This document shows positions 1,842 to 58,171 of a stretch of 64,000 bases of DNA, in pieces. Positions within the stretch are counted from its first letter, which is position 1. Each line of letters opens with the position of its first letter. This DNA is from an uncultured Rikenella sp. GTDB lineage: Bacteria; Bacteroidota; Bacteroidia; Bacteroidales; VadinHA17. The notes under the pieces are model-generated. The model had not been told where the DNA came from and did not search any database. It saw only the letters and a list, made by a program, of their open reading frames with translations. Where the stretch lies: the NCBI GenBank assembly GCA_964537135.1, contig CAZHZC010000013.1:2301-66300 (forward strand), in the 5' to 3' direction. The position numbers and the translations under genes were made by a program.

Positions 1842-1963
1842 CTTTAATGTAGGTTTTTAAGTTACTCTATTGTTAATATTTATCTCTCTTATTGTGTCTG
1901 TGCTACCCTGTCTTTACTGCTTATTCTCTCTTATTTTTTCTGTACTACTCTATTGTTACTGAT

Positions 1964-23283: not shown

Positions 23284-23355
23284 AGCTAGGGCTGACCCAT
23301 AAGATCAGCCCTAGACATTCTTTTAACAGACAGATAGATAACTATCTCAAAAAAA

Positions 23356-24177
23356 TCAAATTGCCACCCGATCCTCTGATGAGGTGCCGGACAGTATCTT
23401 ATACCCTGAACACTCCTTAACCGGTAGTGAGACAAACACTGATGTGGCCTTGCCATCATCTGACTCAACCCTGATGGTACCCTCCATAGTGGAGATAAGA
23501 TTTCTGGCCAGGATTAAATTCATAGCGGAATAGGTATCCTGACTGTCGGATTGTCGGATTTCAGGATTGTCGGAAAGCAGCAGGTCTCTGCTTTTTGAAT
23601 AACCCTGGCCAGAATCTTTTACATACATTGTAATTATCTCATCACCGTAGGTGCACCCAACCTTAATAAACCCTGAAAAAGTGTGGTTGAGCGCATTCCT
23701 GAACAGATTGCTGACAATACGTGTCAGCCGTGCCGGATCAAGCTTCAGTATCAGCTTCTCAGGCAGATTGTCCTCATGAATGAGAACGACACTGTCGTGT
23801 CCCTTTTTCCCCATGTAAACCCTGAAATCTGAGGTTAGTGACTCGAACAGTGATGTTATATCAGTCTCACGGAGTTTCTCGCCTCCTCCGTTAACTGTTT
23901 TCAGTATTGCAGTATCAAAGTAGTTTTCAAACAGCCCTATCAGTTGTTCACATGATCGTATGATATGGTCACTGAACTCTCTTCTCTCTGCGTCAGTGAA
24001 CCGTTCATTGCCAATCAGGTGTGAGAACGCCATTATTGAGTTCATCTGGGTTCTGATCTCATGTGATACCCCAGCTATTATCTCCGGGTTGTTAATCATT
24101 CTGTCAAGCTTTTTACGCCCGGCTCTCCCTGCCTCACCTGTCTCCTTCATGAGGGCATTGCGAAGGATCTCGAACAT
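23356..24177 (-). CDS. Sensorless HisKA/HATPase histidine-kinase-like protein with degenerate G2 box
   Basis: H-box VSHEIRT, N-box SNLFRNA, G1 DSGQG; expected GLGL replaced by AMNL; no TM or sensor domain. Confidence 0.8.
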   Translation of the reverse strand: MFEILRNALMKETGEAGRAGRKKLDRMINNPEIIAGVSHEIRTQMNSIMAFSHLIGNERFTDAERREFSDHIIRSCEQLIGLFENYFDTAILKTVNGGGEKLRETDITSLFESLTSDFRVYMGKKGHDSVVLIHEDNLPEKLILKLDPARLTRIVSNLFRNALNHTFSGFIKVGCTYGDEIITMYVKDSGQGYSKSRDLLLSDNPEIRQSDSQDTYSAMNLILARNLISTMEGTIRVESDDGKATSVFVSLPVKECSGYKILSGTSSEDRVAI

Positions 24178-24289
24178 ATGATTACCTGTTTAATTACACT
24201 TTCTTCTTCAGCCTGCAGCTTACTCAGCTTACTCTTGCCAAACTCTGCGCTTCGTTGAGCTCTGTTTTGTACTACATTATAGCTCTGAC

Positions 24290-25039
24290 CTACCTCATCC
24301 TGCGGGCCAGCCGTGCCGCCTTTTTTGCGTAGCGGCTTCCCGAGGCAGCTATCGCTTCGAACTGGGTGACAGCCTTCTCCCTGTTATCGGTCATCATATA
24401 GCAGAGTCCCAGATACCATGAAGCATCTTCGAGGTAGAGGTTATCATTGTGATCAATCACACTACGGAATGATCCGCTGGCCTGCTGGTAATTCTTTATC
24501 TCCATATTGGCCATCCCGTGCATGAACACCGGTTCCATCTCCTTCTGCCCCTTGTCTATCAGCTGCTCCAGGCAGACTATTGCCTTCTCATACTCCCTGG
24601 CATTGTAGGAGGCCATGGCATCCTGCATCAGTGTATTGTCAGTGGTCTCTGCCGATCTCACTGCTCCCTGCAGCTCATACCGTGCATAGTTGGCCAGCAG
24701 CAGCTCTTCCGGTGATGAGCCGGGCCTCATAATAAGGTACAGGGCTGCCGTCACCAGCGCTGCGACAGCTACTGCCGCCGCATACCTGCCGGCGCGCACG
24801 AGGCCCCGCCGTACTCTCTCTGCCGAGCGTTTTTTACTGTCAAGGTGTATAAGCTTCCTGCGCAGCTCAAGCAGACCGCTGTCTGCCAGTATCTCATCAC
24901 TCTTCTGCCTCAGGGCAGCCTCACGTTCAGCCGACAACGAATCATTTGTCAAATCAGTGAGCCATGAGTTAACCGCCCTGCCGGGTTTACCTGCAAGGTG
25001 CTGGTAGTCCGGGTTGTTTGCGTTATTCCTTTTCATCAT
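24290..25039 (-). CDS. Single-pass membrane TPR protein, putative anti-sigma factor
   Basis: About 85-aa basic N-terminus, TM helix RYAAAVAVAALVTAALYLIM, C-terminal TPR-like repeats (Y...EYEKAI..L, A.WYLGLCY); close to CHAT and ECF sigma genes. Confidence 0.7.
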   Translation of the reverse strand: MMKRNNANNPDYQHLAGKPGRAVNSWLTDLTNDSLSAEREAALRQKSDEILADSGLLELRRKLIHLDSKKRSAERVRRGLVRAGRYAAAVAVAALVTAALYLIMRPGSSPEELLLANYARYELQGAVRSAETTDNTLMQDAMASYNAREYEKAIVCLEQLIDKGQKEMEPVFMHGMANMEIKNYQQASGSFRSVIDHNDNLYLEDASWYLGLCYMMTDNREKAVTQFEAIAASGSRYAKKAARLARRMR

Positions 25040-25133
25040 ATTGTGTTTTACACAGTTAATATCCGTTCAACTCTCTGTTGTGTGCCACCTGGTGGAGAGA
25101 GCCGGCAACAATGCCCCTCTCCCTGCCAGCAGC

Positions 25134-25196
25134 TCAATATATCACTCTTCCCCAGCCCAATATCACTCCCCCCGGCCCAATATCACTCCCCGCTGC
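25134..25196. repeat. 20-nt tandem repeat, 2 near-perfect plus 1 degenerate copy (CCCAATATCACTCCCC)
   Basis: Identical 16-mers at 25156-25171 and 25176-25191; degenerate copy at 25134-25153. Confidence 0.85.
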
Positions 25197-25512
25197 TCTG
25201 CGTCATTTTCCTCTGTCACCGGACCATGCACCAGTAAAATTCTGGTAACATGCCAGTTCCTTCCACCTGCCGGTTTTTCCGTAGCTCAGCCACCACACCC
25301 TTTGCCGGTATCACTGCGTACCGCACCTCTCCGGGAGTATGGCCCCGGCTCTCTCTTCCGGGCCCTTCACCCGCTATGGGTTATGGCGTGGCTCTCTCTA
25401 CTGCCACTCTTCCCCCGTTTCCCGGATCACCCGGTAAGGCCTGTGCAGCCCTTTACCACCGGGTATAGCTTAAGACTGGCCCAGCCAGCCTTCGCTATGA
25501 ACAGATATCAGA

Positions 25513-25659
25513 TCAGATCTCAATAATTATCGGAGGCAGGGTCGGACCTATAGGGCCACCCGGGATTGGCTTGGTACCGCCACGAAGGTTAATCATCTCT
25601 TCATTTGAAAGAACAAACTCAGCAAGCTTTTCAATTTTCAGGGTTTCCATCTTTTTCAT
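25513..25659 (-). CDS. 48-aa double-glycine-leader peptide precursor, MKKMETLKIEKLAEFVLSNEEMINLRGG|TKPIPGGPIGPTLPPIIIEI (not in the ORF track)
   Basis: Hand-translated ATG 25659 to TGA 25513-25515. Leader fits L(-12)S-x-x-E-hydrophobic(-7)-x-x-hydrophobic(-4)-x-GG. AT-rich upstream region; C39 exporter 4 kb away. Confidence 0.85.
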   Translation of the reverse strand: MKKMETLKIEKLAEFVLSNEEMINLRGGTKPIPGGPIGPTLPPIIIEI

Positions 25660-25697
25660 AATTAATTAATAAATCAGGGTTTAATTGCGTTTACATC

Positions 25698-25730
25698 AAT
25701 ACGTACCCAAAAGGGGCGTTTTGTGACACA
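25698..25730 (-). promoter_or_regulatory. Candidate ECF-type promoter for the peptide gene (TGTGTCACA-N18-CGTATT)
   Basis: Bipartite motif resembling ECF -35/-10 elements, ending 38 nt upstream of the ATG; no TAnnTTTG box seen close to the start. Confidence 0.45.
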
Positions 25731-25824
25731 AAAAAACGAACTATTTTTAATTTAATTTATATTATGCTCATTAACTGCTACATACAATTACTCTTTTGTG
25801 ACTGTTTAAGAGTCTGATCTTTTA

Positions 25825-25832
25825 TATTTTTG
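25825..25832 (+). promoter_or_regulatory. -7 promoter box (TATTTTTG) for the CHAT gene
   Basis: TAnnTTTG, 27 nt upstream of ATG 25860. Confidence 0.55.
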
Positions 25833-25859
25833 CAGTCTGAAGCTAGAAGAACCACTTTG

Positions 25860-28800
25860 ATGAGTCAGAAGAGAGCCATACTGACCCTGATTTTTATTGT
25901 CTGCTGCCAATTTGTTGTCATGACGGAAGCGCCGGCGAAGGGAGCTGTTGACGGTCAGGTTACGGACCTTATAAGACTGCGTCAGCTGACCGACACCCTC
26001 TCAGGTATCCTTGAAGGGGGCAGAACCGAAAGTGACCCGGCGGCCTGTGTGACCGAGATCGAAAGAATATTGTTGACGGGTACCGTTACCGATACACTGG
26101 CCCTATCGGACGCTTTCTACTATACCGGCATTCACCATTTTCAGTCCAACAGATTCTCCAGTGCCTCCAAATCCTTCGCCCGATCGCTACGGTTCCGTGA
26201 AGCTCTCAGTCTGACAGACCGCCGCTATTCAACCGGCTACAGCAATCTGGCGGCATCACTGGCCAGGGAGGGCGACTATGAAGCTGCCCGTCAGGCAGGA
26301 ATCAGGGCGCTGGAGGTGAGGAGGCTCACCTCCGGATCCGACTCATCGGGTCTGGCTAATACCTATCTCAACCTGGCCAGTATATCGTCACAGCTGAATG
26401 ATAATGAACAGGCGATTGTGATGGCTGAGGCCGGACTGGAAATTGCACGTCTCTTCCCGCGAAAGGTCAGTGAGAAGGTGGTTGCCGACCTGTACCATGT
26501 AATAGGTCTGAGTCTGTATAATATAAATGAATACAACAAGTCACTTGCCTACTGCCGGCAGGCCCTCACCATTTACGATCGTCAGCAGGATGCCGGCATC
26601 GATTCGCGGATACTGATTCACAACACCATAGCCCTGATCTACCAGGCTGTGGGTCAGCCCGGTGAGAGTGAACACTATCTGCGTCGCGGGCTGGCCATAG
26701 AGGATGGGGCTGAAACACAGGACAAGTACCTTCTCTATCTGAATTATGCACGACTGCTTGAGGAGATGGGGAGGGTTGATGAGGGTGAGAGGCTTCTTGA
26801 GAGAGGGGTTGAGCAGGCGAGCCGCAGCTTTGGGGGAGCCAGCCGGCAATACTTCACAATGCTTGTAGGCCTGGCAGCCTTTGTTGATCAGAGCCTGCAT
26901 GACCATGTACGCTCACTGGCTCTCTATGACAGCTGCTTCTCATATGTACGCCATAACCCGTGGGACCATATAATGCGAAAGTTTGTCACGGCAGCCTATG
27001 CCACCGCACTCTACTCAGCCGGCAGGTATAAGGAGCTGCTGGAGGTGACTGAGGAGGAGGCTGCACTGCCACAGGCATCATACGAGTGGAGATACAACAG
27101 GACAGCAGACAGTAGAGCTACAGACAGAAGTGTTGCAGATGGCAGGGCTACAGATGGGAGAGTTGCAGATGGCAGAGCTGCGGACAGAAGAGTTGCAGAT
27201 GGCAGGGCTACTGATGAATGGGTTACAGACGGCATGACAGGCGAAAATGGCAGGATCTCAGCCAGTGACCTGGCAATACTGAACCTGAGATATGCCTCGC
27301 TCAATGCTCTGTCAGCCAGCAGCAGTGACACCCTGCTCATCAGGAAGGCCATCGCCACAGGCCGTCAGCTCACCTCAATCTATGATCGTCGCAGGCTGGA
27401 GATGACTGATGATGAGAGTCGTACCAATCTGAGCTCCTCATCAAGGGATGTCTATACCGGCCTGGTAGGCAACTATGCCGCCCTTTACAATGAGGGTGCT
27501 GCCCCGGGGCTGGTCAGTGCCTTTTTTGAGTTCACAGAGAGAAGCAAGATGGCGGGATTTCTCTCTTCCATACGTGAGGTTAATGCTGCCCGCTTCTCAC
27601 TGCCAGTGGAGCTGGTCACGCTCGACGCCACCATACGCAGCCAGACAGGGCTCTATCGTGAGCTGATAGCGAGGGAAGAGATCAGGGCAGCACCCGACAC
27701 ACAACGGCTGGCTACATGGGAAGGACTGATATTCAGGCTGGTCAGGTCTCGTGACTCACTGATACGTCTCTTTGAGGAGGAGTATCCGGCCTACTACAAC
27801 CTGAAATACAGAAGTGAGGTGACCCCCTCTACAAACATAACGAGGGTGATAGGGCGCCACTCAAACCTACTCAGCTATGTGCTGACCGAGACGAAGCTCT
27901 ACACCTTTGTGGCCAACCAGAGACACCAGGAGATCATCACCCATGATATTGACAGCTCCTTTATAGCATCACTCTACCGGTTTCGTGAGCTGCTAACCAC
28001 CATGCCACGTACCAGTGATACCCGTGCCCCCTTCAATGAATATATGGATCTGGCCTACAGCCTTTACCGTGTGCTCCTTGAGCCGGCCCTGCCTTATCTC
28101 AGGGGTGACAAGATTGTTATCTCTCCTGACAATATTCTCTCATATATCCCTTTTGAGGCGCTGGTTACCGAGGAGTTTCGCAGCCAGGAGATGCTCTACC
28201 GTGATGCGCCCTTCGCACTGAAGAGATTCCGCTTCTCATATATCTATAGCGTTACCCTCTCATCGGAGACGATGGAGAGGAGCAGGAGGTTCAATAACCG
28301 GGTAGCTGCATTCGCACCCTCATATTCAGCGATGGAGATTGCTGACTCACTGCTGGTATCATGGCCCACCCTGCGGAGCAATATAAGAGAGCTGCCCTAC
28401 GCCCTGCTGGAGGCAGAAGATGTGGTGAGGCAGTGTGGCGGCACAGCCTTCCTGGGAGAGGAGGCGGGTGAAGAGAGATTCAAGCGGGAGGCGGCAGGCT
28501 ACAAAATAATACACCTGGCAACCCATGCCCTGGTTGATGACCGGCAGCCGGCATTCTCAAAGATACTGTTTGCCGGAGGTGACAAGAGCGAAGATGGTAT
28601 GCTCAATACCTATGAGATATACAGCATGCACCTCAATGCCATGCTGGTGGTACTCAGCTCATGCAATACCGGTGTGGGGAGGCTGGTCAGTGGTGAGGGG
28701 ATACTGAGCCTCGCCCGCGGATTCCTCTATGCCGGCAGCCGCTCGGTGGTGATGTCAATGTGGGAGGTGGAGGATGTGTCTGCCTCGTTGGTAACACACT

Positions 28801-29042
28801 CATTTTACAGGAATATGAGGGCGGGGCAGACCAAGAGTGCGGCACTGCGCAGTGCCAGGCTACGCTTCCTGCGGGAGGCAGACCAGACCCGGTCACACCC
28901 CTACTACTGGGCAACACTGGTAATCTATGGTGATGACACACCACTGTGGTATAACCATATCACTCTTTACCTGTCACTGCTGGGGGTGCTGGCTGCCGGC
29001 ACGGTACTTATGGCTCTCTATTACAGAGGGCCAAGGTCATGA
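25860..29042 (+). CDS. TPR-CHAT (caspase-like, peptidase C14 clan) protease with signal peptide and C-terminal TM anchor
   Basis: N-terminal hydrophobic signal; TPR repeats; ISPDNILSYIPFEAL; catalytic His in IIHLATHA and Cys in VVLSSCNT; SMWEVED and HPYYWA motifs; C-terminal LYLSLLGVLAAGTVLMALYY. Confidence 0.93.
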   Translation: MSQKRAILTLIFIVCCQFVVMTEAPAKGAVDGQVTDLIRLRQLTDTLSGILEGGRTESDPAACVTEIERILLTGTVTDTLALSDAFYYTGIHHFQSNRFSSASKSFARSLRFREALSLTDRRYSTGYSNLAASLAREGDYEAARQAGIRALEVRRLTSGSDSSGLANTYLNLASISSQLNDNEQAIVMAEAGLEIARLFPRKVSEKVVADLYHVIGLSLYNINEYNKSLAYCRQALTIYDRQQDAGIDSRILIHNTIALIYQAVGQPGESEHYLRRGLAIEDGAETQDKYLLYLNYARLLEEMGRVDEGERLLERGVEQASRSFGGASRQYFTMLVGLAAFVDQSLHDHVRSLALYDSCFSYVRHNPWDHIMRKFVTAAYATALYSAGRYKELLEVTEEEAALPQASYEWRYNRTADSRATDRSVADGRATDGRVADGRAADRRVADGRATDEWVTDGMTGENGRISASDLAILNLRYASLNALSASSSDTLLIRKAIATGRQLTSIYDRRRLEMTDDESRTNLSSSSRDVYTGLVGNYAALYNEGAAPGLVSAFFEFTERSKMAGFLSSIREVNAARFSLPVELVTLDATIRSQTGLYRELIAREEIRAAPDTQRLATWEGLIFRLVRSRDSLIRLFEEEYPAYYNLKYRSEVTPSTNITRVIGRHSNLLSYVLTETKLYTFVANQRHQEIITHDIDSSFIASLYRFRELLTTMPRTSDTRAPFNEYMDLAYSLYRVLLEPALPYLRGDKIVISPDNILSYIPFEALVTEEFRSQEMLYRDAPFALKRFRFSYIYSVTLSSETMERSRRFNNRVAAFAPSYSAMEIADSLLVSWPTLRSNIRELPYALLEAEDVVRQCGGTAFLGEEAGEERFKREAAGYKIIHLATHALVDDRQPAFSKILFAGGDKSEDGMLNTYEIYSMHLNAMLVVLSSCNTGVGRLVSGEGILSLARGFLYAGSRSVVMSMWEVEDVSASLVTHSFYRNMRAGQTKSAALRSARLRFLREADQTRSHPYYWATLVIYGDDTPLWYNHITLYLSLLGVLAAGTVLMALYYRGPRS
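27105..27254 (+). repeat. In-frame 30-nt (10-aa) tandem repeat inside the CHAT gene
   Basis: Units start at 27105, 27135, 27165, 27195, 27225: ADSRATDRSV / ADGRATDGRV / ADGRAADRRV / ADGRATDEWV / TDGMTGENGR. Confidence 0.9.
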
Positions 29043-29587
29043 TATTCGGGATCTGTCCTGATGATCTCCATCAGAGCCTCCTTGCACAGATATTTTTTAC
29101 GGCGGGCATAAGCCTCACTGCCGAGATTCATGCGGCGGGCAATCTCTTCGTAGGTGTGTCCTTCACTGAACAGGTTTAGAATCATCTGGCAGTCAGCCTT
29201 CAACAGCGCAAATGAACGCATCACTATGCGCTCCATGATAGCCTGGCTGATAAGGTCATCATCACGTGAGTCGACCGGCTCAGAGATGATCGGTTCAAGC
29301 TTCGAACGGTGTTGAAGCAGCTTGGTCCAGACAATACGTGCCATACCAAAGAAGTAACCTTTAAGGTCACCGGCTACCTGCAGTCTTCCGCCGGTCACCT
29401 TACGGTAGAAAAATACAATCGTCTCCTGAAACACCTCATGCACATCATCATCTGTGGCACCATTTTTCAGGAGATAGTCACGTACCATACCGAACCAGTT
29501 ATCATAGAGGTATGAAAGGATGCGGTTGTCCTGCCTCCTTATCCCATCAATGATGTCAGAATCCGAATACTTTCTGAATAAGCCCAA
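29021..29587 (-). CDS. ECF (sigma-70 group 4) RNA polymerase sigma factor
   Basis: Region 2 (DDVHEVFQETIV, GYFFGMARIVW) and region 4 (CQMILNLF.EGHTYEEIA..M); TTG start; TATATTTG box at 29605-29612; overlaps the CHAT 3' end by 22 nt (convergent). Confidence 0.9.
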   Translation of the reverse strand: MGLFRKYSDSDIIDGIRRQDNRILSYLYDNWFGMVRDYLLKNGATDDDVHEVFQETIVFFYRKVTGGRLQVAGDLKGYFFGMARIVWTKLLQHRSKLEPIISEPVDSRDDDLISQAIMERIVMRSFALLKADCQMILNLFSEGHTYEEIARRMNLGSEAYARRKKYLCKEALMEIIRTDPEYHDLGPL

Positions 29588-29726
29588 ACCGGCGATTTAA
29601 TTGACAAATATACAATTTCCGCAATCGATTTCTGAAAAGTGCGCTTCAGTAGCTCTTTCTTGCCCCATGGAAGTGTGTCACATTTATTTTGGATATATTT
29701 GCAACGGTTCATCTCCTCACAATTAT

Positions 29727-31910
29727 ATGGCGTACCCCTTTGTCAGACAACATGATGCAATGGACTGCGGGCCTGCCTGCATCAGTATGGTGGCACAGTG
29801 GCACGGCAAGCACTTCTCACTGGAGACTATCAGACAGAAGGCCTGGATCACCCGGCAGGGTGTCTCAATGATGGGTCTCAGCCAGGCTGCCGTGAGCATG
29901 GGGTTGACTGCTGTAGGGGTGAAGATACCTTTCAGCAGGCTGCGGAGTGATGCTCCCCTGCCAGCAGTGGCACACTGGCAGCAGAATCACTTTATTGTTG
30001 TCAACAGGATCAGTGACAGGATGGTATGGGTCAGTGACCCGGCCATCGGTCGTATCAGGATGAGCCATGATGAGTTTCTTAGGGGCTGGAGTACGGGCGA
30101 GAGAGAGGGTGAGAGGGAGGGTATGGCACTGCTGCTCACCCCGGGGCCCGGCTTCACCGATCAGCCTGATGACCCGCCTGCACGTAGCAGCTTTCGCTTC
30201 CTGCTGCCCTACCTGAAGTCCTATCGCAGACAGATCATATGGCTGTTTGCCGGACTGATAGCCTCAAGCGCCATACAGCTGGTCTTTCCCTTCCTCACCC
30301 AGGCAATAATAGACAGGGGGATAGCAGCACGTGACATACGTCTTATCTGGCTGATACTGGCCGGGCAGCTGGCACTGACGGCCGGCAGGATGGCTGTGGA
30401 GTTCAGTCGCGGCTGGCTGCTGCTTCACCTCGGCACACGGCTTAACATCAGGATAGTCTCTGACTTCCTGGCAAGGCTGATGGGGCTCCCCATCGCCTAC
30501 TTCGACACCAAGCTTAACGGTGATATCCTGCAGCGTATAGATGACAACAGCAGGGTAGAGGAGTATCTGACCTCCTCGAGCCTTACCATACTCTTCTCGC
30601 TCTTTAATTTTGTCATATTTGGTATTGTGCTGGGCATATATAGTATACCGGTACTGCTAGTATTTGTCTCCGGCACAGCACTCTATATCCTCTATGTCAC
30701 CCTCTTCATGCCTGCCCGTGAGCGGCTGGACAACAGGCGTTTTATGCAGATGGCTGAGGCGGGCAACAGGATCATCAACATTGTCAACGGGATGCAGGAG
30801 ATAAAGCTGGCAGGTAATGAGGCAGCCAACAGGCTTGAGTGGGAGAAGCATCAGAGAGAGGTTTACTCAACCCGGATCAGGGGGATGCGGATAATGCAAT
30901 TCCAGACAGCCGGCGGAACACTTATCCATGAGTCGGTAAACGTGATTATCACAATCATATCTGCCACACTGGTAATTGGCGGCTCAATGACCCTGGGGAT
31001 GATGCTGGCGGTACAGTTTATCACCGGCCAGCTGAATGGTCCGGTATCACAGATAGTGAGCCTGATGAGAGCGACACAGGATGCACGTATAAGCCTTGAA
31101 CGTATCAGTGAGGTGCATGAGATGACCTCCGAGACTGAAGATGATCAGCAGAAGGCAGCTATGCCTGCTGACGCGCCGGTGACCATCAGGGAGCTCTCAT
31201 TCAGGTATGAGGGGCCCGGCTCGCCATGGGTGCTGCATCGCCTCAACCTCAACATACCGGCCGGACGTATCACTGCTGTGGTGGGCGAGAGCGGGTCAGG
31301 AAAGAGTACCCTTCTTAAGATGCTTCTGGGCTATTACCGACCCGTTGAAGGAGAGATACTGATAGGGGGGAGGAGGCTGGAGGAGATATCTGTCTCATCA
31401 CTGAGAGAGAATACCGGTGTGGTGATGCAGGAGGGGTATATCTTCCCCGATACCATTCTGGGTAATATTGCCCCCGGTGAAGATGAGCCTGTGATGGAGA
31501 GGGTTGAGAGAGCCATTATGACTGCCAACCTCACACCACTGATAGAGATACTCCCGGCAGGCCTCAATACGATGGTGGGGCAGGGCGGTCACGGACTGAG
31601 CCAGGGACAGAAACAGCGGATACTGATAGCACGGGTGGTCTACAAGGAGCCGTCACTGCTGCTGCTTGATGAGGCTACCAGTGCCCTTGATGCCTCCAAT
31701 GAGAGAGTGATTGTTGAGAACCTGGCACAGTTTTATGCAGGACGAACGGTGGTGGTGGTGGCTCACCGGCTGAGCACGGTACGCCATGCTGACAACATAG
31801 TGGTGCTTGATCAGGGAAGGGTGACCGAGGAGGGTACCCACGATCAGCTCACCGCCCTCAGAGGTACATACTACAGGCTCATAAGAGACCAGCTGGAGCT
31901 GGGAGCCTGA
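29727..31910 (+). CDS. Peptidase-containing ABC transporter (C39 peptidase + TMD + NBD), double-glycine peptide exporter
   Basis: QHDAMDCG (Cys), NHFIVV (His), SDPA (Asp); Walker A GESGSGKST, signature LSQGQ, Walker B LLLLDE. Start set to ATG 29727, with TATATTTG at 29694-29701. Confidence 0.95.
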   Translation: MAYPFVRQHDAMDCGPACISMVAQWHGKHFSLETIRQKAWITRQGVSMMGLSQAAVSMGLTAVGVKIPFSRLRSDAPLPAVAHWQQNHFIVVNRISDRMVWVSDPAIGRIRMSHDEFLRGWSTGEREGEREGMALLLTPGPGFTDQPDDPPARSSFRFLLPYLKSYRRQIIWLFAGLIASSAIQLVFPFLTQAIIDRGIAARDIRLIWLILAGQLALTAGRMAVEFSRGWLLLHLGTRLNIRIVSDFLARLMGLPIAYFDTKLNGDILQRIDDNSRVEEYLTSSSLTILFSLFNFVIFGIVLGIYSIPVLLVFVSGTALYILYVTLFMPARERLDNRRFMQMAEAGNRIINIVNGMQEIKLAGNEAANRLEWEKHQREVYSTRIRGMRIMQFQTAGGTLIHESVNVIITIISATLVIGGSMTLGMMLAVQFITGQLNGPVSQIVSLMRATQDARISLERISEVHEMTSETEDDQQKAAMPADAPVTIRELSFRYEGPGSPWVLHRLNLNIPAGRITAVVGESGSGKSTLLKMLLGYYRPVEGEILIGGRRLEEISVSSLRENTGVVMQEGYIFPDTILGNIAPGEDEPVMERVERAIMTANLTPLIEILPAGLNTMVGQGGHGLSQGQKQRILIARVVYKEPSLLLLDEATSALDASNERVIVENLAQFYAGRTVVVVAHRLSTVRHADNIVVLDQGRVTEEGTHDQLTALRGTYYRLIRDQLELGA

Positions 31911-31922
31911 CAGGTGGCGGTG

Positions 31923-32117
31923 TCACTCCTTATCAGGATCTTTTCCGGAATATGGCTCATAGTCATCAGGCTTCTCCCGTGGACTCTCCTTCCTCTTTTC
32001 CCCTCCGGTGACATTACCATCGCTGCCAGACCTTCTCTTTTTTTGCATATTTCTATATGCCAGATAACCGGCCAGAGCAGTAAGCAACAGGATAAGAATG
32101 AACTGCATGGTTTCCAT
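31923..32117 (-). CDS. Small single-pass membrane protein (64 aa), unknown function
   Basis: N-terminal TM, basic stop-transfer, charged tail; own TAAATTTG box at 32144-32151. Confidence 0.65.
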   Translation of the reverse strand: METMQFILILLLTALAGYLAYRNMQKKRRSGSDGNVTGGEKRKESPREKPDDYEPYSGKDPDKE

Positions 32118-32302
32118 AAATTCAGAATATCAAACCCGATTGACAAATTTAAACTTTTTGACAATCAGAAGCTATTCATTCCCATTTAATTCAGGTATAG
32201 GTTTGACTTTTGCTAATATTCCATTATTTTCGTGGTTTGAAAAAAGGAGGTGAGCTGCACGCCTCCCGCCATTGGCGAAGCACTGAAGAAAAGGGATTTG
32301 AA

Positions 32303-34597
32303 ATGACAACAAAAGATCCGGAAAACTCTGTTCATAATGAACAATTCAATGACCCTGACAGGAACATTGAATCTATGGAGAATAACGATATACCGGTAAC
32401 TGCTCCGGAAGATACTGCTGAAGAGAGAGTTGCTCCACCGGCAGAGGAGAGCGGGGGCGGTGAGCCAAAGACAGCCGCTGAAGAGGAAAAACACCGGGAG
32501 GAGCAGAATGAGCCCGGAGAGAAGGAGGAGAATGAGACTGAGGAAAAGAAGGCGGAGGCTGTAGATCAGGTCGAAGGTGACGCTGAGGAGAAGAAGGCGG
32601 AGGCTGTAGATCAGGCTGAAGAGAAGGATACTGTCGATCAGGCTGAAGAGGAGAAAAAGGGTGATACTGATGAGAAGACTGTCGATCAGGTCGAAGGTGA
32701 AGCTGAAGGGAAGGTTGTAGATCAGACTGAAGAGAAGGATACTGTAGATCAGGCTGAAGAGGAGGAAAAGGATGATACTGATGAGAAGACTGTAGATCAG
32801 GTCGAAGGTGAGGCTGAAGAGAAGGAAGAGGAGGAGGAGGAGCTCAATTACGATGAGATAGAGCTGCCACCGGTAGATTATAGCGGCTTCTCAAGAAAGG
32901 AGCTGGTAGAGACCCTCGCCCTCATAGTGGAGAACAGGCCGCCAGCGGAGATCATTGATGATGTCAGCCGTATCAAGGAGCTCTTCTACAAAAAGAGCAA
33001 GGCTGAATTCAACGAGCGCAGGCTCGAATTTGCCAAGGAGGGTGGTAATATTGAAGATTACAGGCCTGAGCCTGATGAGCTGGAGGGTGAGATAAATACC
33101 ATTCTGCAGACCTACCGCAGTCGCAGAAGTGACTTCATTAAGGTTCAGGAGAGCGAGAAGCAGGAGAACCTGAAAAAGAAGCTGGATATCATTGAGCAGA
33201 TTAAGGATCTGGTAAACCGTGAGGAGGCAATAAACAAGACCTTCCAGGAGTTCAGGAACCTGCAGAATGCCTGGCATGCCATAGGCATCGTGCCACAGCC
33301 GGCAGTGAAAGATCTGTGGGAGAACTATCATCACAGCGTAGAGATATTCTATGACTATATAAAGATAAACCGTGAGCTGAGAGACCTGGACTTGCGTAAA
33401 AATCTCGAAGTCAAGGTATTACTATGTGAGAAGGCTGAGGAGCTGCTTCTTGAGCCCAATGCTGTGGCAGCCTTCAAGCAGCTGCAGGAGTACCACAACC
33501 AGTGGCGTGAGGTGGGTCCGGTACCGCATGAGCACAAGAATGAGATTTGGGAGCGGTTCCGTGAGGCTACCTCAAAAGTAAACAAGAGGCACCATGAGTT
33601 CTTTGAGAAGCAGAAGGATGAGCAGAAGCGTAACCTGGAGGCCAAGACCGAGCTGTGTAAGAGGGTTGAGGAGATAGCTGCCGGCGAGATACTCACTTTT
33701 GCCGATTTCAGGGAGAAGTCAGAGGCGATCCTGGAGGCTCAGAAGCTGTGGAAAACGATCGGGTTTGCTCCCAGGAAACATAATAACAAGATTTATCAGC
33801 GTTTCAGGGCAGCATGTGACACCTTCTTCGAAAAGAAGCGCACCTTTTTTGCCGAGAACAAGGAGACACAGGTGAGAAACCTGCAGCTCAAGACAGAGCT
33901 CTGTCTCAAGGCTGAGGCGCTGCAGGAGGGTACCGACTGGAAGGAGACCTCTGACATGCTGATAAGGCTTCAGAAAGAGTGGAAAGAGATCGGACCGGTA
34001 CCTAAAAAATATTCAGACAAGATATGGAAGCGGTTCCGAAGGGCATGCGACACCTTCTTTACCCGTAAGTCTGAATACTTCACCGGCCGTGACTCATCAT
34101 ACGAAGATAATCTCAATGCCAAACTGGCCATACTGGATGAGCTTGACCAGTTTGACCCGGGGGAGGATCTCAGGGCCGGGTTTGAACAGCTGAAGGATAT
34201 ACAGAAGCGATGGACTGATATAGGTTTTGTGCCATACAACAGGAAAGAGGAGATAGCACGGCGATACAAAGAGGCGCTGAACAGGCAGTTTGACAGGCTG
34301 AAACTTGATGATGAGGACAAAAATATTCTCAGATATCGTAGCAAGATTGACAGTGCCAGGTCAAACCCGCGCACCGCAAGGAAGGTGAGAGGTGAACGTG
34401 AGAAGTTCTACAGCAAAATCAGACAGCTGGAGAGTGATATTGTCCTTTGGGAGAACAATATAGGCTTCTTTGCAAAGTCGGCCAACGCTGACAGTATGAT
34501 AAAAGAGGTCGAAGAGAAGATAGCCAGCGCCAAAAGAGAGATAAAGATGCTCGAAGAGAAGGTGAGGCTGATTGATAACTCTATGTATGAGGAGTAG
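32303..34597 (+). CDS. DUF349 domain-containing protein with acidic repetitive N-terminus
   Basis: Repeated W..IG.VP......IW.RFR.A.D.FF units. Start set to ATG 32303. Confidence 0.88.
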   Translation: MTTKDPENSVHNEQFNDPDRNIESMENNDIPVTAPEDTAEERVAPPAEESGGGEPKTAAEEEKHREEQNEPGEKEENETEEKKAEAVDQVEGDAEEKKAEAVDQAEEKDTVDQAEEEKKGDTDEKTVDQVEGEAEGKVVDQTEEKDTVDQAEEEEKDDTDEKTVDQVEGEAEEKEEEEEELNYDEIELPPVDYSGFSRKELVETLALIVENRPPAEIIDDVSRIKELFYKKSKAEFNERRLEFAKEGGNIEDYRPEPDELEGEINTILQTYRSRRSDFIKVQESEKQENLKKKLDIIEQIKDLVNREEAINKTFQEFRNLQNAWHAIGIVPQPAVKDLWENYHHSVEIFYDYIKINRELRDLDLRKNLEVKVLLCEKAEELLLEPNAVAAFKQLQEYHNQWREVGPVPHEHKNEIWERFREATSKVNKRHHEFFEKQKDEQKRNLEAKTELCKRVEEIAAGEILTFADFREKSEAILEAQKLWKTIGFAPRKHNNKIYQRFRAACDTFFEKKRTFFAENKETQVRNLQLKTELCLKAEALQEGTDWKETSDMLIRLQKEWKEIGPVPKKYSDKIWKRFRRACDTFFTRKSEYFTGRDSSYEDNLNAKLAILDELDQFDPGEDLRAGFEQLKDIQKRWTDIGFVPYNRKEEIARRYKEALNRQFDRLKLDDEDKNILRYRSKIDSARSNPRTARKVRGEREKFYSKIRQLESDIVLWENNIGFFAKSANADSMIKEVEEKIASAKREIKMLEEKVRLIDNSMYEE
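32540..32825 (+). repeat. In-frame nested repeats (45-nt and 111-nt periods) encoding acidic VDQ(A/V)EE units
   Basis: GTAGATCAG anchors at 32561, 32606 (+45) and 32717 (+111); the 37-aa unit is nearly identical in both copies. Confidence 0.9.
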
Positions 34598-42678: not shown

Positions 42679-44961
42679 ATGCCCCGAGGGCAGCTCGCTG
42701 TGCTGCCTTTACTGTGCTACTCTGTTCAGATTCTATTCACAGTGGCAGGGTTAACCACTTTTTACTTACTTTTAGGCCCAAATGGTGTGCCATTGCAAAG
42801 AGGTCCCTTCATAGCATTGCTGTTTCTGGTCATGCCCCTTGCTCTCTCAGGGCAGGGTGAGTATGCGGTTGGAAAACCGCTCTTTCCCGCTATAGATCAG
42901 TGGCATGAGGTAACTATCGACCAGGAGGCGCTGACCCTCATGCGTTCACTTGACCAGCCCAAGGACCAGCCATGGCAGTTTGCCATCCCTGTCGGTGTAT
43001 CGCTCACGCCTTTTAACTCAGGCTTTACTGTCAGCCGTGGGGGAGAGACCGTCTGGGTGCTGCCACTCTCCTCCAAGGGAGCCCTCTCGCTCAACCTGAT
43101 CCTCACCCCCTATGAGCTGCCGGATGGTGCTTATATATATCTGTATGATAATGACCGTACTGTTGTGAGGGGTGCCTTTACTGCCGGCAGTGGGAGCCAC
43201 ACTCTCCCCATCCTTCCTGTGCCCGGTGACCTGATGGTGCTTGAGTGTCATTTCCCCGGTGGTCTCATACCTCCTGATGCAATAGGTGTCAGCCAGGTGG
43301 CTCATGACTTTGCGGGCTTCTTCGCCCCGCCTGACACCAAGGATGCCTATTATGGCAGGTCTGGTGAGTGCGAGGTTGATCTCCTCTGTTCATCAGACAC
43401 CACCCACCATAGGGTTGCAGGCTCGGTGGTGAGGCTGCTGGTAGCAGGTATAGAGCTCTGTACCGGCGTCATGGTCAACACCACCGGCAACGCCAATAAA
43501 CCCTATCTGCTTACTGCCAACCACTGTATCAGCAATGACAAGGAGGCGGCAAATACCATATTTGTATTTAACTACCGCAGTCCGGTATGCGGGGGACCAG
43601 ACATAAGCAACATGCATTCGCTCACCGGCTCGTTCCTGCGTGCTACCGGTACTGAGACCGATTTCTCACTGGTTGAGCTGCATCAGTTTCCCCCTATACA
43701 CTTCAAGCCTTACCTGGCAGGCTGGGATATCAGCGGGACAGCGCCCTCATCAGCCTTCACGCTTCATCATCCTGAAGGTGATATGATGAAGGTGAGCCTT
43801 ACCGGCAGGGCGCCGGTTGTCAATTCCTATCCGGTACCGGGGTTTGCTGCGTCGGCCTTCTGGAGGGTCATGTTGTGGGATAGTGGCTCTACCGAGCCCG
43901 GCTCATCGGGCGCACCCCTCTTTGACCCTGCCGGCCTGATAAGGGGCACCCTCACCGGTGGCTCAGCCACCTGTGCCAATCCCCGTAACGACTATTTTGC
44001 CAGGGTAAGCATGATGTTTGACCATGGCGACAGTGAATCGTCGCGCCTGCGACCCTGGCTTGACCCTCTCTCAATAGGCGCCACCCGCACCGGAGGCCGG
44101 AATCCATACCAGGCAAACCTGTCACAGTCAGATACGTTAGGAGGTATAACTACCGGTGAGGGCGGTATGATGAGTTCATACCTGCTGCCCGGCTGGGGGC
44201 TCTCTACCGGACACAACTCAGACAGCCTGGTCAGCTATGCTGAATATATTCCCTTCGCAGGTAGCGGCGAGCTTATATGGCTAAGAGTCAGGGTAGCTGC
44301 AGCTGCTCCCCTCTCTCATGCCGACTCAATACGATTCTACCTGTGGCATGATAGTGACACTCCGGGTAATGTTATTACCAGCAGGAGGCTGAGGGTCAGT
44401 GAGGTTATCAGCGGTCATGAGACGGAGCTTGACTTTGGCGGTCCGGTAGCTCTCTCCGGACCTTTCTATGCCGGTTACCGCATCTATTATCGTGAGAGCC
44501 TTCATCAGCACCAGCCACTCTTTGGCGTAACCCACTCGGCACCATATCTCTATCCACCACTCAACAGCGCCTTCTTCAGTGACGGTACCAGCTGGAAGCC
44601 CTTTACCAGCCACCCGTCATACCCCATGTCGGTATCACTAGGGATAAGGGCTGTCATGGTAAAAAACTCACTCCTCAGGGTGCCAGACACTATCCGTCCG
44701 CCTCAGGCAGGGGTGCAGGTATTCCCAAACCCCTTTGTCTCTTACATCACCTTCAGGATAGTTGATGGCGTGGCTGATGAGCTGTCACTGCTGATCTATG
44801 ACAACGCCGGCCTGGTGGTTCATGCAGGCCACTACAGCATCACCGCCCCCGGTGAGCTCACCGTTGAGCTGCCCCCCCTGTTACCCGGGGTGTACCATTA
44901 CAGCCTGACAGCAGGCAGGCAACAATACTCAGGCACCGTGATTAAATCTGTAATCAGATGA
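42679..44961 (+). CDS. Trypsin-like (lysyl endopeptidase-type) serine protease with T9SS C-terminal sorting domain
   Basis: Triad LTANHC / TDFSLVEL / GSSGAP; C-terminal VFPNPF..G.Y......K pattern. True start may be GTG ~42787. Confidence 0.85.
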   Translation: MPRGQLAVLPLLCYSVQILFTVAGLTTFYLLLGPNGVPLQRGPFIALLFLVMPLALSGQGEYAVGKPLFPAIDQWHEVTIDQEALTLMRSLDQPKDQPWQFAIPVGVSLTPFNSGFTVSRGGETVWVLPLSSKGALSLNLILTPYELPDGAYIYLYDNDRTVVRGAFTAGSGSHTLPILPVPGDLMVLECHFPGGLIPPDAIGVSQVAHDFAGFFAPPDTKDAYYGRSGECEVDLLCSSDTTHHRVAGSVVRLLVAGIELCTGVMVNTTGNANKPYLLTANHCISNDKEAANTIFVFNYRSPVCGGPDISNMHSLTGSFLRATGTETDFSLVELHQFPPIHFKPYLAGWDISGTAPSSAFTLHHPEGDMMKVSLTGRAPVVNSYPVPGFAASAFWRVMLWDSGSTEPGSSGAPLFDPAGLIRGTLTGGSATCANPRNDYFARVSMMFDHGDSESSRLRPWLDPLSIGATRTGGRNPYQANLSQSDTLGGITTGEGGMMSSYLLPGWGLSTGHNSDSLVSYAEYIPFAGSGELIWLRVRVAAAAPLSHADSIRFYLWHDSDTPGNVITSRRLRVSEVISGHETELDFGGPVALSGPFYAGYRIYYRESLHQHQPLFGVTHSAPYLYPPLNSAFFSDGTSWKPFTSHPSYPMSVSLGIRAVMVKNSLLRVPDTIRPPQAGVQVFPNPFVSYITFRIVDGVADELSLLIYDNAGLVVHAGHYSITAPGELTVELPPLLPGVYHYSLTAGRQQYSGTVIKSVIR

Positions 44962-46241
44962 GTAGCAGCAATATGACTACCGATTCTCTCGCAGGCCGTC
45001 CACCGCTGCAGCCACCAGCCGCCACAGAGGTCACTGCCAGTCCTGTTGCAGCTTTCCCCCCGCGGGCACCTCATCATGGAGGTACCCCGGTAACAATGCT
45101 GGCCATAACACTTGTGGTCTCCCTGATCATCCTGGCAGCCGGCTGTCGTCACCGTAGCGATCCTTCCCCTTCAGGTCACCCTTCAGGTCCCTCATCGGCC
45201 ACCGGCGAGGCTACCGGTCTCAGGATAGAGAGGGAGGGAGATGTTGTCAGGGTGACAGTGACCACCCCATGGCAGAAGAGTGGTGGTGCCGGACATATCT
45301 GGTACCTGGTGCCGCATGGCAGGGTGCTGCCCGTAGGGGTGAATGAGGGAGAGGTCATAAGGGTTCCCATCAGCAGGATAGTATGTATGTCAACAACACA
45401 CATAGCCATGCTTCGCGCCCTTGAGGCCGAGAACCTGATAGTCGGCATCTCCGGCACAACGCTGGTGTATGACTCTCTTATACGAAAGGCGATAAGCCGG
45501 GGAGAGATAGCAGATGTCGGTTATGAGGCCAGCCTCGACAAGGAGCTGATCATCTCACTCGCTCCTGACCTGGTGATGGCCTACGGCATCACCGGACCGG
45601 TCACCGGAAGCATGGCACGACTGTCGGAGACAGGTGTAAAGGTCTTTTACAATGCTGAGCACCTTGAGAGTCATCCGCTGGCACGCAGTGAGTGGATCAG
45701 GCTCTTCGGGCTGCTGGCAGGCAAGGAGGCGATGGCTGACTCTATCGTAGTTGCTGTTACTGCCAGCTACCATGAGCTGACAATGATGGTTGACAGCCTC
45801 GTCACCCGCCGGCCCCTGGTGCTGCTGGGGGCGCCCTGGGAAGATGTGTGGTACATCTCACCGTCAGACTCATACACCGGCCGCCTGATCAATGATGCCG
45901 GTGGTGAGTACCTCTACAGTGAGCTGCGGGGCGCCAACCCCTTCCCCATGTCGGTGGAGTCGGTCTTCCGCAAGGCTGCCGGGGCTGAGATATGGATCAA
46001 CCCGGGTGAGGCTGCCTCGCTGCAGGCGATCGCTGCTGCTGACCGCCGGCTGGCAGCACTGCCCCTCTTCAGTGGGGGAAGGGTTTGGAACAACCGCCTG
46101 AGAACCACAGCTACCGGGGGTAACGACTATTGGGAGAGTGCCGTGGTACGTCCTGACAGGCTTCTCAGTGATTTTATAGCGATTATCCATCCGGAGCTGA
46201 TGCCCGGCTATGAATATTATTATTACAGGAGAGTGGAGTGA
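44958..46241 (+). CDS. ABC transporter substrate-binding lipoprotein (cobalamin/Fe-chelate, BtuF-like)
   Basis: RIVCMSTTH, E.HPLARSEWI, NDYWESAVVRPD motifs; lipobox AAGC; ATGA overlap. Confidence 0.85.
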   Translation: MSSSNMTTDSLAGRPPLQPPAATEVTASPVAAFPPRAPHHGGTPVTMLAITLVVSLIILAAGCRHRSDPSPSGHPSGPSSATGEATGLRIEREGDVVRVTVTTPWQKSGGAGHIWYLVPHGRVLPVGVNEGEVIRVPISRIVCMSTTHIAMLRALEAENLIVGISGTTLVYDSLIRKAISRGEIADVGYEASLDKELIISLAPDLVMAYGITGPVTGSMARLSETGVKVFYNAEHLESHPLARSEWIRLFGLLAGKEAMADSIVVAVTASYHELTMMVDSLVTRRPLVLLGAPWEDVWYISPSDSYTGRLINDAGGEYLYSELRGANPFPMSVESVFRKAAGAEIWINPGEAASLQAIAAADRRLAALPLFSGGRVWNNRLRTTATGGNDYWESAVVRPDRLLSDFIAIIHPELMPGYEYYYYRRVE

Positions 46242-58094: not shown

Positions 58095-58171
58095 GGTTCC
58101 GTAGCTCAGTTGGATAGAGCAACAGCCTTCTAAGCTGTGGGTCGAGCGTTCGAGTCGCTCCGGAATCACCA
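58095..58171 (+). tRNA. tRNA-Arg (anticodon TCT)
   Basis: Acceptor stem GGTTCCG/CGGAATC, anticodon arm ACAGC-CTTCTAA-GCTGT, GTTCGA T-loop, encoded CCA; TATCTTTG box at 58062-58069. Confidence 0.97.

Follow-up and report, generated by a model that had tools for sequence, protein, structure and literature searches.

In the sigma-E pathway of Escherichia coli (DegS/RseA/RseP/sigma-E), a hydrophobic C-terminal peptide binds a periplasmic site-1 protease, whereupon a single-pass anti-sigma factor is cut, site-2 cleavage follows and the sigma factor is released. The Gram-positive pheromones made with a double-glycine (GG) leader (ComC/ComAB/ComDE, BlpC/BlpAB/BlpRH) are sensed by a membrane histidine kinase and its response regulator, and the RRNPP receptors (Rap/NprR/PlcR/PrgX) bind short exported peptides through tetratricopeptide repeat (TPR) domains, the active part of the peptide being its C-terminal end. 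Bacterial CHAT proteases, which are caspase- or separase-like, are abundant, and beyond Craspase almost none of them has a known substrate or trigger. Craspase is the type III-E system of Cas7-11, Csx29, Csx30 and CASP-sigma, in which the TPR-CHAT protein Csx29 is the protease (PMC10028731). The one characterised extracytoplasmic CHAT example is DdvA of Myxococcus xanthus, which forms with DdvS an extracytoplasmic function (ECF) sigma/anti-sigma pair, has a periplasmic TPR-CHAT part and does not depend on Cas proteins; the proposal for the TPR-CHAT part is that, as site-1 protease, it cuts a flexible linker next to the membrane and that an RseP-type cleavage follows, and DdvA-like proteins were reported by the authors only from Myxococcota and one Comamonas (PMC11506125). 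Here we describe a locus at positions 23356-31910 of a DNA stretch of 64,000 nucleotides from an uncultured Rikenella sp. (the whole stretch is called the window below). Its six genes encode a TPR-CHAT protease, an ECF-type sigma factor, a single-pass TPR protein that we regard as a putative anti-sigma factor, a GG-leader precursor peptide, a C39-ABC exporter and a protein that resembles a histidine kinase (HK-like). The initial annotation of this DNA had taken the locus for a peptide-triggered signalling system without a characterised example, and in the latter it was wrong, as DdvS/DdvA has been characterised (PMC11506125).

Our best explanation takes the locus as a whole for an extracytoplasmic signalling module that works through regulated proteolysis, and we give it slightly less than an even chance. 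Within it we consider it probable that the triad of CHAT protease, sigma factor and TPR protein is a protease-gated sigma switch. Such a switch has already been described for DdvS/DdvA; what looks like a new system is a split, DdvA-like switch with a linked peptide and exporter. As with DdvA, a TPR-CHAT with a His-Cys dyad, extracytoplasmic here by prediction, is genetically paired with an ECF sigma (H889/C935 align to H862/C907 of DdvA), and a single-pass anti-sigma at the inner membrane, here putative, controls the sigma. The two differ in that DdvA joins anti-sigma domain, transmembrane (TM) segment and TPR-CHAT in one chain of 991 aa, which are here divided between two proteins; in that the anti-sigma domain of DdvA is zinc-binding (CHCC), whereas the protein here has no zinc motif and a small TPR domain of its own; and in that the CHAT protein here begins with a signal peptide instead of an anti-sigma domain and is anchored by a C-terminal helix. 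DdvA also regulates a CBASS/CRISPR defence island, while here there are no defence genes and a dedicated peptide and exporter are attached. By analogy, the present system, having two chains, is not a DdvA-like member but very probably works alike. We also considered an anti-phage defence system and rejected it, PADLOC having returned only generic ATPase and TPR matches.

With Craspase the locus shares a TPR-CHAT protease and a protein that would hold an ECF-type sigma and be cleaved, but Craspase is cytoplasmic, RNA-guided and activated by target RNA on Cas7-11 (PMC10028731), and the protease here is predicted to be exported. Neither the genes identified in the window nor the families common to related loci include a Cas gene, and none of the CRISPR direct-repeat families in Rfam was returned for the window; the locus is not Craspase. 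DegS is a serine protease whose PDZ domain senses misfolded outer-membrane proteins by their C-termini; the protease of this locus belongs to the clan-CD cysteine proteases, its sensors would be TPR domains and the candidate ligand is a dedicated, genetically linked, exported peptide. The ComC and BlpC systems likewise have a short unmodified GG-leader peptide, a C39-ABC exporter, a dedicated inducible promoter and, as we propose here, autoinduction, but the receiver proposed here is a relay of TPR protease, anti-sigma and ECF sigma in a diderm periplasm, and the sole kinase-like protein is cytoplasmic and sensorless. The RRNPP receptors are cytoplasmic and need re-import of the peptide, whereas both TPR domains here are predicted to be periplasmic; the Rap phosphatase 4i1a is among the TPR sequence matches (E=5.8e-13), a match that is generic to TPRs. 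In the full-text literature, with group pages and closed literature outside the search, we found no paper tying CHAT proteins to ECF sigmas in Bacteroidota. One review places CHAT proteins near ECF54 sigmas, as a possible mechanism without an anti-sigma, and the main text of the ECF classification paper (PMC7826278) does not mention CHAT.

For comparison, 83 loci were gathered by looking up CHAT orthologues three times and by scanning a single genome of each species, and were analysed with custom hidden Markov models. Outside the clade of the window (loci L001-L011), the CHAT, sigma and TPR genes occur together among unrelated flanks at 32 further loci of Bacteroidota (Saprospiraceae, Cyclobacteriaceae, Flavobacteriaceae, Weeksellaceae, Chitinophagaceae, Sphingobacteriaceae and others), and triads occupy at least 32 loci among the 69 sampled species-level genomes, the cultured Gaetbulibacter jejuensis and Moheibacter lacus included. 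Clustering of the neighbouring open reading frames (ORFs) left only the CHAT, sigma and TPR families common to the 32 loci, any other family being present in three loci or fewer, and the unit of these three that had been proposed for the window is thus a conserved one. The sigma/TPR pair was present at 18 of the 24 loci that have at least 4 kb on both sides of the CHAT gene. In the triads the TPR gene comes directly after the sigma gene, and the pair is mostly convergent with the CHAT gene and abuts it. Within the clade of the window, eight loci (L001-L004, L006-L008 and L011, the last a metagenome-assembled genome (MAG) of the Marinilabiliaceae) repeat the order of the six genes and have identical neighbours on either side (QueE, OmpA-like, DUF349, YidC), with CHAT identity falling to ~32%; L009 and L010 (a Rikenellaceae MAG) are truncated contigs that keep CHAT, sigma and ABC, and L005 keeps the genes with split CHAT and ABC frames. 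Since the flanks are equally conserved in the clade, this order argues for long retention and not by itself for functional linkage.

The TPR-CHAT gene is found at 25860-29042 on the plus strand and its domain match is strong (Pfam CHAT, E=1.5e-59). The ORF opens at a TTG at 25830, which lies inside a promoter-like TATTTTTG box (25825-25832), and the real start is most likely the ATG at 25860, which gives the 1060 aa of the database call. In that numbering the dyad is His889/Cys935, equivalent to 899/945 in the frame first used; among 22 relatives the Cys is invariant and the His is kept in at least 90%, and together with the alignment to DdvA H862/C907 this bears out the initial description of an intact His/Cys pair. 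The N-terminus, a hydrophobic helix followed by an AxA site, reads as a signal peptide; a TPR superhelix (30-402), a disordered repeat insert (404-464), a helical region (468-649) and the CHAT domain (657-1024) follow, and the chain ends in a TM helix (1033-1054) with a short basic tail, YYRGPRS. Of 38 full-length CHAT proteins that are linked to a triad, 32 end in such a TM helix and basic tail. Together with the signal peptide, this helix puts the protein, by prediction, outside the cytoplasm, as had been suggested at the outset, and the CHAT body is predicted to share the periplasmic side with the linker and TPRs of the putative anti-sigma. A Foldseek search of the PDB with the AlphaFold2 model (pLDDT 78.7) put Csx29 (8eey_B) first, DdvA (8ROT/8RW5) second and separases also in the top ranks; by sequence, the sole match of the CHAT domain to solved structures was DdvA (8rot/8rw5, E=1.5e-4). 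The disordered insert is encoded by a 30-nt tandem repeat of 3.3 copies (27114-27211), which translates into (R)ATDGRVADG-like repeats that fall in the sole long disordered stretch of the model, between the TPR and helical regions. The orthologues have 996-1083 aa, and the repeat expansion may be specific to this genome.

The sigma gene (29021-29587, minus strand, 188 aa) encodes a protein that on its own matches ECF models weakly, its score of 30.9 against TIGR02937 falling below the curated cut-off of 42.9. ECF sigmas consist of the sigma-2 and sigma-4 regions alone, in about 170-220 aa. The profile of its family (36 relatives) matches the full-length solved ECF sigmas RpoE, SigW, SigH and SigL over residues 1-178 (E=5.6e-18 to 1e-15), and Sigma70_r2 is matched by 30 and Sigma70_r4_2 by 15 of the 36 relatives, so that its assignment as an ECF sigma holds at the level of the family profile (E ~1e-18 to solved ECF sigmas). 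The gene converges with the CHAT gene and the two overlap at their 3' ends by 22 nt (29021-29042). All orthologues share this overlap; many canonical triads have in its stead one of 2-30 nt between the anti-sigma gene and the CHAT 3' end. Convergent overlap of this kind could allow transcriptional interference between sensor and regulator.

The TPR gene lies at 24290-25039 on the minus strand (249 aa; Pfam TPRs). Its product is predicted to have a cytoplasmic helical N-terminus (~1-85), a TM segment (86-104), a disordered juxtamembrane linker and periplasmic TPRs (133-248). The AlphaFold2 model, built from an alignment of orthologues only and of modest confidence (pLDDT 62), begins with three short helices on the cytoplasmic side, which are followed by a long one that takes in the TM segment, by a low-confidence linker and by the TPRs. 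We call this protein an anti-sigma mainly because the sigma and TPR genes are adjacent and co-oriented, as in an operon, at the 32 related loci, with gaps of mostly -4 to +20 nt. The single-pass TPR protein of the initial annotation is therefore present, but its role as anti-sigma follows from gene context and not from a domain match. Most members of the family have an N-terminal IExYLxGxLxxxE helix, which we take to resemble the helices of anti-sigma domains; no conserved His or Cys and no zinc motif, such as the HxxxCxxC of zf-HC2, occur in the family. A link by sequence from the N-terminus to solved anti-sigmas was sought and dropped, the best match being a Nif11 leader domain (E=0.008). 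In the linker, G125, R128 and S129 are invariant in 44 orthologues; R128 is found in 85% of 34 family members across the phylum and is the sole charged residue among the ten best-conserved columns, in a stretch with pLDDT <50. Several clan-CD proteases, separase included, cut after Arg, and we infer Arg128-Ser129 to be the candidate site of CHAT cleavage.

The precursor peptide is encoded at 25513-25659 on the minus strand. It has 48 aa, made up of the leader MKKMETLKIEKLAEFVLSNEEMINLRGG and a predicted 20-aa mature part TKPIPGGPIGPTLPPIIIEI, and scores 26.5 bits against NCBIfam TIGR04149, above the curated cut-off of 25. In this it is like the modified peptides (ribosomally synthesised and post-translationally modified peptides, RiPPs) of Bacteroidota that TIGR04149 (GG_sam_targ_CFB) describes, but the locus is not a complete RiPP locus: no radical-SAM/SPASM maturase is found near the peptide gene and the peptide core has no conserved Cys. 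A nearby radical-SAM gene was rejected as maturase because it is a short (206-aa) QueE-like flank gene that is conserved independently. Ten orthologous peptides of the clade have a conserved leader, a variable N-terminal half of the mature part and a conserved C-terminal PP(I/V)IIE(I/V), the endings within the clade being PPIIIEI, PPVIIEI/V/L, PPVII, PPIRI and VDPEI; over all groups the mature peptides have 15-24 aa. A homologue search with the 48-aa peptide gave no match besides the query itself, probably because small ORFs are seldom called in the database. In the window the GG-leader peptide is the only one of its kind, and so is the sigma of this family.

The link of peptide and exporter with the triad recurs beyond the clade. 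CHAT subfamily 2 (L046, L059 and nine metagenome loci that a search with the L059 protein brought up) lies beside tryptophan-synthesis genes, its own gene order being [HlyD<-ABC] [peptide(s)->CHAT] [TPR<-sigma]. There, a GG peptide precedes CHAT in 7/7 loci with upstream sequence, an ABC gene is present in 6/6 loci that reach far enough, and the peptide core belongs to a different proline-rich family, PPLPPxGGEDYPIDL. At L026 and L077 a GG peptide lies 84-93 nt upstream of CHAT, and at L049, a Roseivirgaceae triad, two tandem GG-type precursors (1717-2237, minus strand) lie directly upstream of the sigma/anti-sigma genes. The L049 precursors have 79 and 81 aa, Cys-/Gly-rich cores and a leader of the form ...LKIKSFVT...LGG; from their sequences they look like modified, lanthipeptide-like peptides and not short linear ones. 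Throughout the 1.2 Mb of loci every convincing GG-leader gene stands beside a CHAT or sigma gene, the other matches of the GG-leader pattern being fragments of larger frames. In a rough neighbour-joining tree of CHAT domains, of low resolution, the peptide-bearing groups do not form one clade. The co-occurrence of peptide and exporter with the triad, from which the locus had been proposed as a single system, thus holds through re-arrangement and relocation in subfamily 2, with GG peptides also at L026, L077 and L049.

The promoter of the peptide gene (25700-25728, minus strand; TGTCAC, 17 nt, TACGTA) belongs to a block of ~35 nt, consisting of a T run, TGTCAC, 17 nt and YAYGTA, that is near-invariant in the alignment of 10/10 orthologues, occurs once per locus and has its sole exact match here in the 64-kb window. 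Classical ECF promoters have GTAAC, GAAAC or GGAAC at -35 and a spacer of 16-17 nt. A box [ATG]G[TA][AC]ACAA at -58 to -79 from the peptide ATG is found in all five peptide groups, at a background of 0.013 per 60 nt for a pattern that was defined after the data were seen, and so is a second hexamer, which follows the -35 box at a spacing of 17 nt. The pairs of -35 box and second hexamer are TGTCACAA with CATGTA or TACGTA in the window's clade, GGTAACAA with TATTAA in subfamily 2, AGTAACAA with TATGTA at L026, GGTAACAA with GATTAA at L077 and TGAAACAA with GCCGAA at L049. The sigma, ABC and CHAT genes of the window's clade have instead, 18-28 nt before the start codon, a TAnnTTTG box, which we take to be the Bacteroidetes housekeeping -7 element; in the window it is the TATTTTTG box of the CHAT gene, a housekeeping-type TATATTTG box of the sigma gene at 29605-29612 and a TATATTTG box of the ABC gene at 29694-29701. 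Upstream of these three genes the peptide promoter motif was not found in the clade. As the peptide gene has an ECF-type promoter and the other three have housekeeping boxes, the peptide gene is probably the target of the sigma, and on these motifs we think it somewhat probable that this sigma controls it. The earlier claim that the sigma drives the peptide gene is fitted by an ECF-type promoter before every peptide gene, as judged by motif resemblance. Three further ideas were dropped: autoregulation through a peptide-type promoter at the sigma, CHAT or ABC gene, where the motif is absent; a shared autoregulatory GGTTACC box upstream of the sigma genes of canonical triads, present in only 6/36; and a GTAAC box upstream of CHAT genes, which at 3/30 is at background level.

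The genes of the locus form four transcription units. Sigma, ABC and CHAT each stand alone, and the fourth unit is a minus-strand series of the peptide, TPR and HK-like genes that ends with the HK-like gene. The initial annotation spoke of six adjacent genes, and all are present, but 473 non-coding bases (25040-25512, minus strand) separate the peptide gene from the TPR gene, against 191-352 nt in relatives. Two stable hairpins stand directly past the peptide stop codon (~25498-25429), and a hairpin of different sequence is found at the same place in 10/10 orthologues. Such a structure points to either an attenuator or an end that stabilises the transcript, some transcription continuing into the TPR and HK-like genes. 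A strong terminator-like hairpin with a 13-bp stem and a T run (23286-23314, minus strand) directly 3' of the HK-like gene is likely the end of this unit. The spacer is G+C-rich (0.56) and contains a 20-nt tandem repeat (25139-25191; GGGGAGTGATATTGGGC-like on the minus strand). A search of the whole window against Rfam gave no family that reaches its gathering score except one tRNA, and none for the spacer.

The exporter gene has an ORF at 29601-31910 on the plus strand and likely starts at the ATG at 29727. Its product matches Peptidase_C39 (E=2.5e-34), ABC_membrane (1.1e-31) and ABC_tran (5.5e-31), is of the PCAT type, with TIGR01193 and TIGR03796 matching over the full length, and has the catalytic motifs of C39, with Cys in DAMDCGPAC and His in NHFIVV as read from the sequence; it had accordingly been identified correctly as a C39-ABC exporter. 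An HlyD-type adaptor, which adjoins such exporters in diderms, was not found in the window or in L001-L005, and an HlyD gene follows the ABC gene in L006 and L008-L011 (15896-17182 in L006, 15831-17117 in L008 and 15656-16969 in L011). The distribution points to loss of HlyD in the window's subclade, the deeper members keeping it. With this loss, periplasmic or autocrine release fits better than a pheromone between cells, so that of the pheromone-like loop first proposed the between-cell part is disfavoured in this subclade. The place of HlyD in the window (31911-32209) is taken by ~300 nt with a small minus-strand ORF between the ABC and DUF349 genes. That ORF (31923-32117) would encode 64 aa that begin with a hydrophobic helix and end in a charged tail (METMQFILILLLTALAGYLAYRNMQKKRR...); L002 and L003 have called genes of 63 and 73 aa at the corresponding position, and the ORF is possibly a real small membrane protein.

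The HK-like gene (23356-24177, minus strand) encodes 273 aa with HisKA (33-89) and HATPase_c (147-254), and only ~30 residues precede the H-box. It has no TM, sensor or input domain, in agreement with its first description as a sensorless kinase-like protein, which has to be corrected in that the G2 box is missing: the aligned orthologues conserve the H-box His, the N box and the G1 box (DSGQG), but all of them have the G2 glycines replaced (YSAMNL/YTAINI). From these motifs the protein would be either an atypical kinase or a pseudokinase. Its gene is confined to the L001-L011 clade and absent from the 32 other triads and subfamily 2, and neither the cluster nor the 20 flanking genes that were scanned showed a response regulator. 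In this phylum a kinase feeds into an ECF sigma in the PorY-PorX-SigP cascade of Porphyromonas (PMC4800418). The C-terminus of the HK-like protein (23356-23370) ends in (V/I)AI in every orthologue, distant ones included, which recalls the hydrophobic C-terminus of the peptide (IEI, VII, IRI); this may be a coincidence, and the protein is predicted to be cytoplasmic.

Taken together, the components would work as a two-polypeptide version of the DdvA proposal. At rest, the ECF sigma would be kept at the inner membrane by the single-pass TPR protein as anti-sigma, with the TPR-CHAT protein tethered by its C-terminal helix to the outer face of the same membrane. On activation, CHAT would act as site-1 protease and cut the anti-sigma in its disordered periplasmic linker, at the candidate Arg128-Ser129, after which site-2 and cytoplasmic proteases would free the sigma. 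The freed sigma would transcribe the peptide gene from the TGTCAC-N17-YAYGTA promoter and, by read-through past the hairpin, the anti-sigma and HK-like genes as well. The C39-ABC exporter would cut off the leader and deliver the 20-aa peptide to the periplasm, where, with no HlyD in this subclade, it would probably stay. TPR domains commonly bind C-terminal peptides, and the conserved hydrophobic C-terminus of the peptide would most likely be the ligand of one of the two periplasmic TPR domains, giving a positive feedback damped by the co-induced anti-sigma. Our acceptance of the peptide as the activating ligand is tentative, and the full autoinduction loop, in which the processed peptide binds a periplasmic TPR domain, CHAT cuts the anti-sigma at the linker Arg and the freed sigma transcribes the peptide gene, is to us possible but doubtful.

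A number of observations weigh against this explanation. Its support consists of sequence, predicted topology and motifs, from which the contacts between proteins and between protein and peptide are inferred. None of the 34 TPR-family members matches a Pfam anti-sigma family, and the N-terminal profile of the family found no anti-sigma domain among solved structures. In the window and its clade the anti-sigma gene is 4 kb from the sigma gene, in the unit of the peptide, which, judged against the other triads, is a derived arrangement. The promoter of the peptide gene is assigned by motif resemblance only, and its near-palindromic -35 block (TTYGTG.CACRAA) could also be an operator for a dimeric regulator; the sigma gene has no copy of the motif, so that there is no classical autoregulation. 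The model does not explain the role of the HK-like protein. For DdvA itself both the signal and proof of CHAT cleavage are lacking, and mutating the dyad gave no phenotype as long as the cells were unstimulated (PMC11506125). Finally, in ~26 of the 32 additional triads no GG peptide could be detected, and a dedicated peptide therefore cannot be the ancestral input. The peptide-triggered system of the initial annotation stands in so far as the linkage recurs, but not with the peptide as ancestral input.

The scarcity of peptides among the triads also favours a different view, in which the peptide is output only: the triad would sense some other envelope or environmental cue, and the peptide would target the envelope or, in the role of an antimicrobial or interspecies signal, other cells, with no feedback on the protease. 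The peptide gene holds the only ECF-type promoter of the locus, the HlyD kept by deeper relatives and subfamily 2 suggests secretion past the outer membrane, and GG-leader peptides with C39-ABC exporters are classically bacteriocins. The mature peptides, however, being 15-24 aa long, proline-rich and uncharged, with no Cys and no amphipathic helix, do not in our reading resemble known class II bacteriocins or bacteroidetocins; the locus lacks an immunity gene, the subclade that lost HlyD yet retains peptide and exporter, and the peptide gene is physically tied to the CHAT gene in four gene arrangements. We judge a role as output only to be conceivable, though rather unlikely. Those who would instead see in the peptide a substrate of CHAT, trimmed to PPxIIEI in the manner of Phr peptides, or a securin-like inhibitor that sits in the active site until a signal arrives, could point to its core of variable N-terminal half and conserved C-terminal heptapeptide, to its co-oriented position 84-303 nt upstream of CHAT in subfamily 2, L026 and L077, and to separase, a fold neighbour that is held by a pseudo-substrate (PMC11506125). 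But the cores have no conserved Arg/Lys or obvious P1 residue, and this role, which we think improbable, does not alone explain the sigma/anti-sigma pair; it is also compatible with the proteolytic signalling module and does not exclude it.

That the association means nothing, the peptide and exporter being the remnant of a RiPP or bacteriocin locus beside a triad and their order inherited synteny, is suggested by flanking housekeeping genes as conserved in the clade as the cluster itself, and by a leader family named for radical-SAM-modified RiPPs where no maturase is present. We find this highly improbable, since the association survives complete re-arrangement and relocation in subfamily 2 and recurs in L026, L077 and L049, the convincing GG-leader genes in 1.2 Mb of loci are all beside CHAT or sigma, and the six genes are intact while CHAT diverges to ~32% identity. 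The HK-like protein, lastly, present in all members of the window's clade, sensorless and with a degenerate G2 box, might itself control the sigma, as a GHKL-type anti-sigma or by phosphorylating an orphan regulator, with the TPR protein as a periplasmic adaptor; the kinase-to-ECF-sigma route of PorY-PorX-SigP (PMC4800418) would be a precedent in Bacteroidota. Against this stands the absence of the HK-like gene from the 32 other triads and subfamily 2, where the coupling of the sigma gene to the TPR gene is near-universal, and we give the idea hardly any probability.

The surroundings of the locus are those of the initial annotation, which together with the six genes and their positions was borne out by the listing of ORFs and by searches with profiles. 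The neighbouring genes have housekeeping or metabolic functions: to one side lie PyrBI, NamZ, a 5'-nucleotidase, an alkaline phosphatase, QueE and an OmpA-like protein, to the other DUF349, YidC, LacI and GH92. The DUF349 gene (32210-34597) starts with a long acidic low-complexity region (repeats at 32593-32842), in which tandem repeats of 111 nt and 36 nt encode AEEKK..VDQ(V/A)E units. Farther away, and apparently unrelated to the cluster, a gene at 42679-44961 has a product of 760 aa that contains a trypsin-like peptidase domain. It is closely preceded by genes for a GH92 and for a transglutaminase-like protein, and an uptake system of periplasmic-binding protein, FecCD and ABC ATPase follows it (44958-48402). 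The tRNA gene that is the sole Rfam match of the window is located at 58095-58168 on the plus strand.

The split form puts protease and substrate in two proteins, which makes trans-cleavage directly testable, and the peptide-bearing versions offer in addition a candidate ligand of 15-24 residues, a candidate site (R128-S129) and a candidate promoter. If the full autoinduction loop is true, it would be the first bacterial extracytoplasmic CHAT with ligand and substrate both identifiable from the genome, and the first peptide-sensing route in which an exported caspase-like TPR-CHAT protease, and not a kinase, is the receptor. It would also add to the phylum a peptide-based self-signalling of which we found no description there in the searchable literature.

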